64,000 bases of DNA from an uncultured Candidatus Saccharibacteria bacterium (lineage in GTDB: Bacteria > Patescibacteriota > Minisyncoccia > Phycocordibacterales > DATDWN01): assembly GCA_964426735.1 (NCBI GenBank), contig CAYRRP010000002.1:70582-134581 (forward strand). The letters are read 5' to 3'. Under the pieces are notes generated by a model. That model was not told where the DNA came from and did no database searches. It saw only the letters and a list, made by a program, of their open reading frames with translations. The position numbers were made by a program, and so were the translations under genes. How positions within the stretch are numbered: position 1 is the first letter of the stretch; every line of letters starts with the position of its first letter. Positions 26,131 to 51,652 of this stretch are shown here, one piece after another.

Positions 26131-26156
26131 AAAAAACCCTTTCGGGCTTTTTCCAA
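26131..26156 (+). terminator. Weak intrinsic terminator AAAAAACCC-TTTC-GGGCTTTTT
   Basis: Short GC stem with flanking A/T runs after the DUF3800-like gene. Confidence 0.4.
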
Positions 26157-26379
26157 CCACGCTCCTAGACTAGGTGTCCTAGCCACGCCACCGTCCGGTG
26201 ACTGTTTGGAATACAGGTTTGTGTACATACACAATACCAGGTTTTAGATGATTAGGCAATGAAGAAGTGGATAACTCAGTCGTCGACTATTTGTCGACAA
26301 CTGAACCTATAAATATTTGAGGTTGTGATATTTTGTCATGGGTTGAAGTTAGAGGCTTTAAATGAGAAAATAAACCATT

Positions 26380-36024: not shown

Positions 36025-36046
36025 ACAACACATCTCTTTCTCCTCA

Positions 36047-36324
36047 CAAGTCTCTTGGGGCAATCTATCTAGCCCTGGTGGGCTAGCGAACTGCTCGCCA
36101 ATCAAGAAAAATATTTTCGACGTCACATCTCAGAAATAAGAAAGATTACTTCCTTATTTCACTCGAAGTTAGTCGAAATAATCGACTTCTGACGGCTACC
36201 TTCTCGCAAACTCCTCGTTGAGTACAACTTCGTCAAACAGTGCTTCAGGTTACGCCGTCTCACCTGAGTACAGGTGTCAGTCGTAATTTTCTAATTGGCT
36301 GCGCAAGGCCCCAAGAAACTTATG
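36047..36324. repeat. Conserved structured element family 2, copy 1 (long form with ~190-nt variable insert)
   Basis: Outer stem AAGTCTCTTGGGGC / GCCCCAAGAAACTT. Conserved 5' block GCAATCTATCTAGCCCTGGTGGGCTAGCGAACTGCTCG..TCAAGAAAA. Conserved 3' block TAATTTTCTAA..CTGCGCAAGGCC. Second copy at 51169-51303. Confidence 0.65.
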
Positions 36325-36358
36325 ATTCGACGAGATTTGATATACTAGGTTATATATT

Positions 36359-51144: not shown

Positions 51145-51168
51145 TAACAAGTATCAGATTTTTTTATT

Positions 51169-51303
51169 GCTTTGTAACTTTTTAGAGGCAATCTATCTAG
51201 CCCTGGTGGGCTAGCGAACTGCTCGTCGTTCAAGAAAATTATAGACCGAATACAGTCTTAATTTTCTAAACTCCTGCGCAAGGCCTCTAAAAAGTTACAA
51301 AGC
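51169..51303. repeat. Conserved structured element family 2, copy 2 (short form)
   Basis: 21-bp perfect outer stem GCTTTGTAACTTTTTAGAGGC / GCCTCTAAAAAGTTACAAAGC. Encloses the same conserved blocks as 36047-36324, including the CTAGCCC-TGGT-GGGCTAG hairpin. Confidence 0.65.
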
Positions 51304-51400
51304 AAACAAAATCTTGATTAGGTAGTGTTAAAAACAAAAAGGCCTTGAAGGTCTTTTTGTTTGTAGGTGGGGTGTGATAAAATTCACACGGAGGGAAGTG

Positions 51401-51652
51401 ATGGAAAAGAGATTGAAGCGAGCGGTGCAGAAATTACTAAAAGGAAAACGACCATTTGAAGGAAGAAGGGTCGTATTGGTTGAGCATCATGGGTCGGAAA
51501 TGGTAGAGCGTGAATTTAGGGTTTGGCATATTTCTGGTGATCATGATGATTTTTCTCTCGAAGAAATCGGTTCTCATGTTGCCCACACTCTTGTGTTCCG
51601 CAAGGGTAAAAATGGACGGTTGTATCCAGTAAGAAAAAAAGAGGGTACCTGA
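51401..51652 (+). CDS. Hypothetical protein (83 aa)
   Basis: GGAGGG RBS 6 nt before the ATG (MEKRLKR...). Hairpin GGGTACC...GGTACCC follows. Confidence 0.4.
   Translation: MEKRLKRAVQKLLKGKRPFEGRRVVLVEHHGSEMVEREFRVWHISGDHDDFSLEEIGSHVAHTLVFRKGKNGRLYPVRKKEGT

Follow-up and report, generated by a model that had tools for sequence, protein, structure and literature searches.

Two stretches of a 64,000-nt piece of DNA from an uncultured Candidatus Saccharibacteria bacterium (contig CAYRRP010000002.1, positions 70,582 to 134,581 of the forward strand; hereafter the window) carry the same conserved blocks of sequence between closing stems that differ from one stretch to the other, which raises the question of what kind of element is present here, on which strand it folds and whether it acts as DNA or as RNA. 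The element, 120-310 nt in length and folded on the minus strand of the window, belongs in both instances to a large family of structured elements interspersed between genes, similar in kind to the ERIC and bcr repeats. It most likely acts as RNA, a reading to which a probability of roughly 0.55 may be attached.

A 39-nt block, GGCAATCTATCTAGCCCTGGTGGGCTAGCGAACTGCTCG, has exactly two occurrences in the window, at 36059-36097 (copy 1) and 51187-51225 (copy 2), and was matched in 0 of 100 shuffles; a 3' block, TAATTTTCTAA-NNNN-CTGCGCAAGGCC, lies at 36284-36310 and 51259-51285. The closing stems differ between the copies and each is self-complementary: copy 1 forms 13 of 14 bp, and copy 2 pairs perfectly over all 21 bp. 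The earlier note on this DNA had described this arrangement of shared blocks and differing stems, and the exact search confirmed it, save that the paired region reported for copy 1 was too short, the pairing reaching approximately 36032-36337. The core measures 248 nt in copy 1 and 95 nt in copy 2, a difference of 153 nt, and the insertion of roughly 190 nt ascribed to copy 1 is therefore true against the short form seen elsewhere but not against copy 2. Folding of the plus strand gave -92.7 kcal/mol (z -6.3) for copy 1 and -61.3 kcal/mol (z -9.4) for copy 2, both far beyond shuffled sequences, and folding of the minus strand gave -127.2 kcal/mol (z -9.7) and -69.6 kcal/mol, respectively.

A pattern scan (CAATCTATC-N14-24-GCGAACTGCTC, one genome per species) matched at least 119 loci, designated here by L numbers. 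True copies are held by approximately 115 of the listed loci and amount to at least 120 or so in all, whilst four listed loci are chance matches in GC-rich genomes from outside the Patescibacteria and lack the 3' block. The true copies come from at least 74 assemblies, with up to six loci per assembly, labelled Nomurabacteria, Paceibacterota, Minisyncoccia, "Patescibacteria group" or, in the case of third-party assemblies, "Saccharibacteria", and the family is restricted to the Nomurabacteria/Paceibacterota branch of the Patescibacteria. A covariance model produced 114 matches within the listed loci and, in the minus-strand orientation, recovered exactly the two copies of the window, both on the minus strand. 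The proposal of a conserved structured element with covarying stems, previously drawn from two copies and made to depend on the discovery of further homologues, is thus decisively borne out on approximately 120 of them. Its supposed novelty relative to known RNA families was likewise upheld, as both strands of both copies and the divergent relatives matched no Rfam 15 family at the gathering threshold, and a search at E up to 10 returned only chance-level matches of 12-23 bits against thresholds of 39-249. No relation to tRNA or tmRNA was found, and an origin from phages or plasmids was rejected on the grounds that IMG/VR, the INPHARED phages and the PLSDB plasmids contained no similar sequence. 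A search of the published literature found no description of the family, which does not prove that none exists.

All copies follow a common layout, 5'-P1-C-[P3a UUGC]-GCA-[P3]-GA-[P3a' GCAG]-UUCG-[P2]-AUAGAUU-P1'-3', in which P1, a long, variable and imperfect stem of approximately 30 bp, closes a three-way junction. The inner 11 bp of P1 are conserved (UUUUUAGAAAG / CUUUAUAAAAA, including a conserved G.A mismatch) and the outer sequence of this stem varies with the subfamily or the copy, with subfamilies recurring at many loci in many species; the arms of 20-30 nt pair in all copies, their imperfections being strand-biased and their sequence differing between subfamilies. It is this recurrence of arm subfamilies that makes the differing outer stems insufficient by themselves to exclude a mobile element, contrary to what had been argued from the two copies. 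P2 is a hairpin of 7-8 bp with an AGCW loop. P3 exists in three sizes: a short form of 4 bp with a GACG loop, giving a 57-nt core; a long form with tandem G.A, the helix AGAAAAUAA/UUAUUUUCU and a tip hairpin, which together make a 50-nt extended helix and a 95-nt core as in copy 2; and an extra-long or X-form, as in copy 1, whose long helix carries a further domain of 100-170 nt. The small P3a helix (UUGC/GCAG) shows a compensatory change from G:C to U:A in L097, L103 and the second copy of L045, and the joint CCUUGCGCAG is near-invariant despite lying outside the search pattern.

In copy 2, the whole element, P1 arms and 95-nt core included, spans 51167..51305 on the minus strand, where the covariance model matched 51175-51297 with a score of 74.7 bits (E 6e-17), and it forms the first row of the long-form alignment. 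Stem pairing and the fold place its P1 5' arm at 51284..51305 and its 3' arm at 51167..51188. Its P3 (51225..51275), of the long form and 94.6% paired in the long-form alignment with two-sided changes at 10 pairs, consists of a tandem G.A base, the helix AGAAAAUUA/UAAUUUUCU and a tip hairpin with a UAUU loop, and its P2 hairpin (51197..51214) belongs to a helix that is 98.1% paired in the long-form alignment. Copy 1 spans 36032..36337 on the same strand according to the minus-strand fold of its arms and 248-nt core, with a partial covariance-model match at 36049-36111. Its P1 5' arm (36309..36338, RNA sense AAAUCUCGUCGAAUCAUAAGUUUCUUGGGG) carries the distal conserved motif CUCGUYG and is homologous to the "class A" arms of many genomes, and its 3' arm (36031..36060, RNA sense CCCCAAGAGACUUGUGAGGAGAAAGAGAUG) carries the distal motif AGAAAGAG, so that its arm subfamily shares the distal internal-loop motif with the commonest arms, those of class A. 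The joint, of near-invariant sequence as given above, occupies 36299..36308, its UUGC pairing with GCAG of the next joint to form P3a. The P2 hairpin CUAGCCC-ACCA-GGGCUAG (minus-strand sense) lies at 36069..36086, in a helix that is 98.5% paired in the short-form alignment with two-sided changes at 6 of 7 pairs. P3 with its extra structured domain was assigned to 36098..36298 from the predicted fold and a three-species alignment; some 100 nt of the domain are common to copy 1, L008 and L013, an additional hairpin of approximately 68 nt is confined to copy 1, and compensatory changes such as CACCUG/CAGGUG against CCGAUG/CAUCGG occur between the three species. L008, which has the same X-form, adjoins the orthologue of the window's helicase in another species.

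Across the family, pairing is preserved through change on both sides of the helices. Among the short forms (n = 57), 95.8% of alignment cells are paired, against 74.3% after shuffling and 35-49% in slid registers, with two-sided changes in 18 of 25 pairs and a covariation score of 0.539 against 0.148; among the long forms (n = 60), pairing extends to 95.2% of cells, with two-sided changes in 28 of 44 pairs. Compensatory changes therefore go beyond both the shuffled and the slid controls, as is generically demanded of a structured RNA. Copies within one genome, like orthologous copies across species, differ in the sequences of P2 and P1, are fully paired and retain constant joints, and such compensatory differences around constant joints in orthologous copies point to selection on resident copies together with exchange between copies.

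The imperfections of the stems reveal on which strand this selection is exerted. In the inner 15 positions of P1, read in the plus orientation, A.C oppositions number 104 and G.T oppositions 4, an A.C on one strand being a G.U wobble on the other. The UC/CU mismatches of the plus strand are likewise tandem G.A/A.G on the minus strand, to which tandem G.A motifs are confined, and RNAfold prefers the minus orientation in 119 of the 120 copies, with a mean gain of 8.9 kcal/mol. A cruciform, a double-stranded protein-binding site or terminal inverted repeats (TIRs) read by a transposase would not produce such an asymmetry, nor could a mutational strand bias, since the orientation bias relative to genes is only 2:1. 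Unexplained by those alternatives, the asymmetry shows that a single strand of defined polarity is selected.

It follows from this polarity that the strand on which the earlier note had read the element was the wrong one. That reading would make the element a two-copy, gene-linked and cis-acting RNA of the plus strand, situated in the 3' untranslated region (UTR) of the upstream gene (a helicase and rpoD). Both window copies do come after a plus-strand gene and the plus strand folds well too, but the wobble pairs, the tandem G.A motifs and the folding energy place the fold on the minus strand, antisense to both genes, and only some members of the family have an upstream gene that runs in the same direction as the plus reading. 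With the element set in the plus orientation, all four configurations of the flanking genes occur (+,+ in 41 cases; +,- in 26; -,+ in 26; -,- in 20), and the same intergenic region can hold either orientation in different species. The family is instead multi-copy and interspersed, in convergent, divergent and co-directional spacers alike, and a plus-strand 3'-UTR element is the least supported of all the readings considered and highly improbable. A near-palindromic element read on the wrong strand can evidently yield a plausible but misleading picture.

The relation of the element to its neighbours is that of an occupant of the whole spacer, for it always fills the intergenic region, with its arms ending within a few nucleotides of the adjoining genes. 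Orthologous spacers measure 117-188 nt when filled and -1 to 24 nt when empty, and the median spacer without an element is 25 nt between co-directional, 51 nt between convergent and 82 nt between divergent genes. Either orientation is encountered in the same spacer of different species, namely between atpD and atpC, between the ...KKTVLSKK gene and its downstream neighbour, and between an exonuclease gene and its divergent neighbour; orthologous copies mostly share an arm subfamily but may be of the short or the long form. One "empty" spacer of 24 nt after the ...KKTVLSKK gene (L062) reads GATTTTTGAAATAGTTCTTGAGAT, a sequence similar to one class-B arm and perhaps left behind by the deletion of an element. 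At L064 and L068, two convergent genes of approximately 330 aa each both end in ...(R/Q)KI-stop and the complementarity runs into both coding ends, with 13 extra pairs beyond the arms at L064, an arrangement that may represent an inverted duplication centred on the element.

When spacers with and without the element were compared within the same loci, 23% against 14.6% were convergent, 24% against 14.8% divergent and 52% against 71% co-directional (chi-square p = 7e-4). The equal enrichment of convergent and divergent spacers argues against a specific terminator function, and a scan for intrinsic terminators (GC-rich hairpin followed by a U-tract) found none at the element, where the base of P1 is AU-rich. 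Insertion into existing palindromes or terminators was also discarded, as the empty orthologous spacers (0-24 nt) hold no hairpin. Sequestration of a start codon or another 5'-UTR role was considered because a class-A arm reads ATGCCAAGAAAGAG on one strand, but no open reading frame (ORF) continues from it and the contexts differ. A hairpin tied to the replication strand or the lagging template was rejected in view of the orientations being mixed within 8 kb (L122).

Strand-specific pairing could also be kept at the level of DNA, and the pattern of presence and absence lends itself to such an explanation. A single-stranded DNA mobile element would fold on one strand to be recognised by a strand-specific transposase or recombinase, whether of the HUH/Y1 type as in IS200/IS605 and REP/REPIN or as an attC-like substrate of a tyrosine recombinase, and its pairing would be preserved since only foldable copies propagate. 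The family is indeed multi-copy and strictly intergenic, its presence and absence are insertion-like with either orientation at the same site, its arm subfamilies recur across many loci and species, an orthologous locus may hold a short form in one species and a long form in another, which suggests that copies were replaced or underwent gene conversion, scans for sigma-70-like promoters and -10 boxes showed no evident dedicated promoter, and DNA hairpins tolerate G.T and G.A pairs. Against this reading, the flanks past class-A arms remain complementary, the additional pairs averaging 4.5, as compared with 2.2 in permuted controls, and reaching 13 (for example TATG...CATA and TTTTG...CAAAA); being copy-specific and inverted rather than direct, they do not constitute a target-site duplication, and the comparison of filled with empty spacers disclosed none. 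A TA duplication in the style of ERIC or Correia elements was excluded by the flanking bases being complementary whatever their identity (T..A, G..C, C..G). No arm pair encloses a gene, as an autonomous relative would, within the approximately 1 Mb of flanking loci (8 kb per copy), and phmmer and tblastn found no Y1 transposase in these loci or in the window with approximate sequences of IS608 TnpA and an E. coli RAYT as queries. In addition, the mixed orientations at L122 speak against a link with the replication strand, and the pairing of orthologous copies at 95-98% with compensatory changes across species indicates selection on resident copies. A DNA element of this kind is accordingly regarded as rather unlikely.

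Comparison with described repeats helps to position the family further. In common with ERIC (or IRU), it comprises imperfect palindromes (of 100-130 bp in ERIC) that are strictly intergenic without a fixed orientation, occupy some orthologous sites and are missing from others, are conserved across genera, and are predicted to form long RNA hairpins whose stability depends on orientation. Wilson and Sharp reportedly described, in 2006, ERIC size variants arising from internal insertions as well as compensatory changes. The conserved part of ERIC is its arms, whereas the present family conserves the three-way-junction core between arms that vary and covary; it also lacks a TA or direct duplication, inhabits another host phylum and bears no sequence similarity to ERIC. 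ERIC itself forms one long hairpin flanked by TA target duplications and, when present in mRNA, can alter transcript stability (PMC3184786). MITEs, or miniature inverted-repeat transposable elements, possess TIRs, direct target-site duplications and a partner transposase, with none of their own (PMC3184786). Those of the Correia (CREE/NEMIS), RUP, Nezha and bcr1 groups are, like the elements described here, small, non-coding, multi-copy and located beside or between genes, with terminal inverted repeats that give a long RNA stem (PMC3184786). Terminal inverted repeats do surround a short non-coding core in the present family, but no duplication and, within the same approximately 1 Mb of loci, no partner transposase was found, and its core, with internal covarying hairpins, is invariant across arm subfamilies, unlike MITE cores, which are not conserved across TIR subfamilies.

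REP and REPIN sequences are described (PMC3116915, PMC3733652) as intergenic, highly repeated hairpins that are recognised as single strands in a strand-specific manner and evolve within genomes. REPs are GC-rich palindromes of 20-40 nt with a GTAG or CGTC head, and a REPIN consists of two conserved REPs, inverted relative to each other, on either side of a spacer that varies. Such elements conserve their stems and vary the loop, and the family here does the reverse, its AT-rich stems being variable and its centre conserved. CGTC appears solely as the loop of a hairpin when the element is read in the orientation that does not fold, and the loci searched yielded no RAYT. The bcr4-bcr6 repeats of the Bacillus cereus group are said, by Kristoffersen et al. 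in 2011, to be interspersed repeats with a predicted conserved RNA structure, compensatory changes and no obvious mobility signature. Their sequence, fold and host are unrelated to those described here. Integron attC sites resemble the family in being imperfect palindromes conserved in structure over sequence, of which one strand folds actively, and in lying after genes; they differ in conserving the outer R/L boxes around a variable centre and in forming same-orientation arrays served by an integrase, whereas in the present family the centre is conserved, the orientations are mixed and the copies dispersed instead of arrayed, and no integrase was seen.

By analogy with the ERIC, Correia and bcr-type repeats, which act as RNA hairpins, the preferred reading is that of an interspersed repeat working at the RNA level. 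A transcript of minus-strand polarity would form a long duplex stem, closed at its end by the sequence-conserved three-way junction, which could serve as a docking site for a conserved partner, be it a protein or a nuclease; the long P1 duplex would be a plausible substrate for an RNase III-type enzyme, neighbouring transcripts may be affected, and the family would spread and be homogenised as a repeated DNA element.

Several observations weigh against this RNA-level reading and should be given due consideration. The element fills its intergenic region and thus leaves no space for a promoter outside the arms; sigma-70-like promoters were counted upstream of 21 copies in the folding orientation and of 24 on the other side, and the modest excess of -10-like boxes 45-95 nt upstream, seen before orthologues were collapsed, shrank to a non-significant 28 against 17.7 when orthologous flanks were collapsed into 86 clusters. 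A dedicated promoter was therefore rejected, full sigma-70 matches being equal on both sides and the -10-only excess largely reflecting orthologous coding flanks. Both window copies are antisense to their co-directional neighbours and a terminator-like hairpin stands just upstream of copy 2 in the folding orientation, so that read-through would yield the weaker-folding strand; between co-directional genes at large, the folding strand is antisense in 41 cases and sense in 20. G.T wobbles and tandem G.A are tolerated in single-stranded DNA as well, hence strand-specific pairing is no proof of RNA. The search pattern itself specified two of the three joints, so that part of their invariance comes from the way in which the copies were selected. 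In light of the weaknesses concerning promoter, orientation and DNA pairing, a single-stranded DNA mobile element, a stand-alone small RNA and a catalytic or ligand-binding RNA all stay live as rivals.

The promoter scans bear equally on the second of these, according to which the copies form a multigene family of trans-acting structured RNAs (protein-sequestering or scaffolding, in the manner of Y RNAs), each transcribed from a weak, non-conserved promoter inside the neighbouring gene. An orientation independent of the neighbours, as with tRNA genes, would suit such genes, as would the enrichment in non-operonic convergent and divergent spacers (23-24% against a baseline of 15%), the conservation of the single-stranded joints, a modular P3 able to accommodate large insertions, the existence of sister families of the same design and the -10-like excess prior to its collapse. 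The loss of that excess among collapsed orthologues, the lack of any conserved promoter or terminator in the scans, the abutment of neighbouring elements at 4-35 nt, and the separation of copy 2 from its RNA-sense upstream gene by a terminator-like hairpin and only about 30 nt make stand-alone genes unlikely.

With regard to the third rival, the approximately 27 conserved nucleotides of the joints might form the active site of a self-processing, ribozyme-like RNA or the pocket of a ligand-binding RNA carried on a repeat. Small ribozymes and aptamers typically show what is seen here, a three-way junction whose joints are strongly conserved while its helices covary freely, and many hammerhead and twister ribozymes are similarly multi-copy and repeat-borne; yet no Rfam ribozyme or riboswitch was matched at E up to 10, and the element has no consistent 5'-UTR placement. 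The hammerhead-like string CUGACGA is not conserved and is confined to P3, where it forms part of a stem-loop that covaries (as in GCGCGACGGCGC, GGACGACGGUCC and others); the present family (family 1) lacks GAAA and UH, and the Rfam hammerhead models did not match the elements. In the sister family described below, a comparable string on one strand (CUGAAGU ... CGAAAC) covaries as a stem, and the orientation that would support a hammerhead is the weaker-folding one. A catalytic or ligand-binding RNA is thus considered quite improbable, and the ribozyme-like motif and the recombination site that the earlier note had offered as options are speculative. K-turns and k-junctions, box C/D motifs, an IHF site and an Frpo-like single-strand promoter were also entertained, and by reasoning from the sequence alone none of them fits.

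The family does not exhaust the elements of this design. A "type 2" core, CAUUGCGCAG-P3-GAGCAUAGCA-P2-AUGYGUG, lies between the same kind of arms, and a GC-rich variant core (71% GC) was found in a Paceibacterota genome; such variant cores (L111:648; L118:948; L043 minus strand, 6366 as a reverse-complemented locus position; L094:3163-3285; L099:6025-6109) make core and arms appear to be exchangeable modules. A sister family, with the core GGGGUUUCGAGGCUGACGAGCCGAGAACUUCAGGAUUUUUUAAGCUUCAAAAAAUCCGUACCGG between long variable arms, is represented by approximately 17 copies in loci that had not been selected for it (L007:6999-7091; L009:1903-1994; L041:3587-3679; L043:2196-2287; L044:708-799; L058:2342-2432; L065:3389-3480; L071:3594-3684; L088:2589-2679; L098:3815-3940; L101:1030-1120; L103:143-233; L111:2395-2486; L113:1769-1859 and 5376-5467; L123:6452-6543; L125:7771-7863). 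It has the architecture of family 1 and shares with it the module C-[GA]-GGCU-GACG-AGCC-[GA]-G. Of the 18 candidate copies, one of which is probably spurious, 16 give the more stable fold in the orientation homologous to that of family 1. Rfam contains no match to it, as searched with the L101 copy at E up to 10 and with eight loci at the gathering threshold, and neither sister-family nor type-2 relatives are present in the window. Where a sister-family or type-2 copy stands beside a family-1 copy, the 5' ends of the two face each other across 4-35 nt, in a back-to-back arrangement, in eight of nine cases (divergent at L007, L088, L098, L101, L113, L123, L125 and L118; convergent at L058), representing at least five different loci; a composite unit, an insertion preference and shared transcription signals are the possibilities for this pairing.

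There is a real though minor chance of a bolder interpretation, in which the family and its sister families constitute a new functional RNA class peculiar to Nomurabacteria-type Patescibacteria, either as a multi-copy RNA gene or as a mobile RNA module, with a junction possessing its own biochemical activity. Such an activity would consist of self-processing or of the specific recruitment of an RNA-processing or defence protein, as opposed to the behaviour of a passive hairpin repeat.

As for the immediate surroundings of the two window copies, the flanking helicase and rpoD genes are as had been claimed. Copy 1 is preceded on the plus strand by a gene for a PIF1-type helicase with an HTH_40 tail and followed by one for an MGMT-type DNA-binding protein, and copy 2 is preceded on the plus strand by a full-length sigma-70 factor gene (rpoD) and followed by a 92-aa ORF and then a UvrD/PD-(D/E)XK helicase-nuclease gene. 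The terminator-like hairpin, made of an A-tract, a hairpin and a T-tract (51332..51362, no strand assigned; -15.9 kcal/mol, z -4.7), lies outside the element, some 30 nt past copy 2 and before the next ORF; the absence of a T-run claimed earlier thus holds for the element itself but not for its vicinity. As this hairpin would stop transcripts from both directions, the rpoD mRNA probably carries copy 2 in the weaker-folding sense. The 92-aa ORF (51374-51652, plus strand), situated between the hairpin and the UvrD-type helicase gene, is without a Pfam match. Logan contigs of the window's organism (the ends of L002 and L003 and the start of L005) break exactly inside the P2 hairpin of copy 1, which is consistent with the 39-nt repeat common to both copies confusing k-mer assembly. 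Elsewhere in the window, a DUF3800-IX RNA (RF02968) was detected at 26151-26219 on the minus strand with 48.1 bits against a gathering threshold of 36.8, the sole Rfam family found in the window, and a DUF3800 protein gene lies near this RNA on the matching Logan contig (L001 1129-1755).

The two copies thus represent an apparently undescribed family of structured repeats, dispersed among the intergenic regions of Patescibacteria with tiny genomes. In genomes of approximately 1 Mb, with a median co-directional spacer of 25 nt in the loci studied, an element of such a size occupying dozens of spacers across many species is conspicuous and probably not neutral. The fold is well supported, its polarity is defined, three size classes and at least two sister families have been recognised, and Rfam contains none of these; the family therefore offers a candidate for RNA-family curation and a marker for the Nomurabacteria/Paceibacterota lineage. 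It also raises the question of which protein or process reads such a conserved junction of three helices in organisms in which hardly any RNA biology has been explored.

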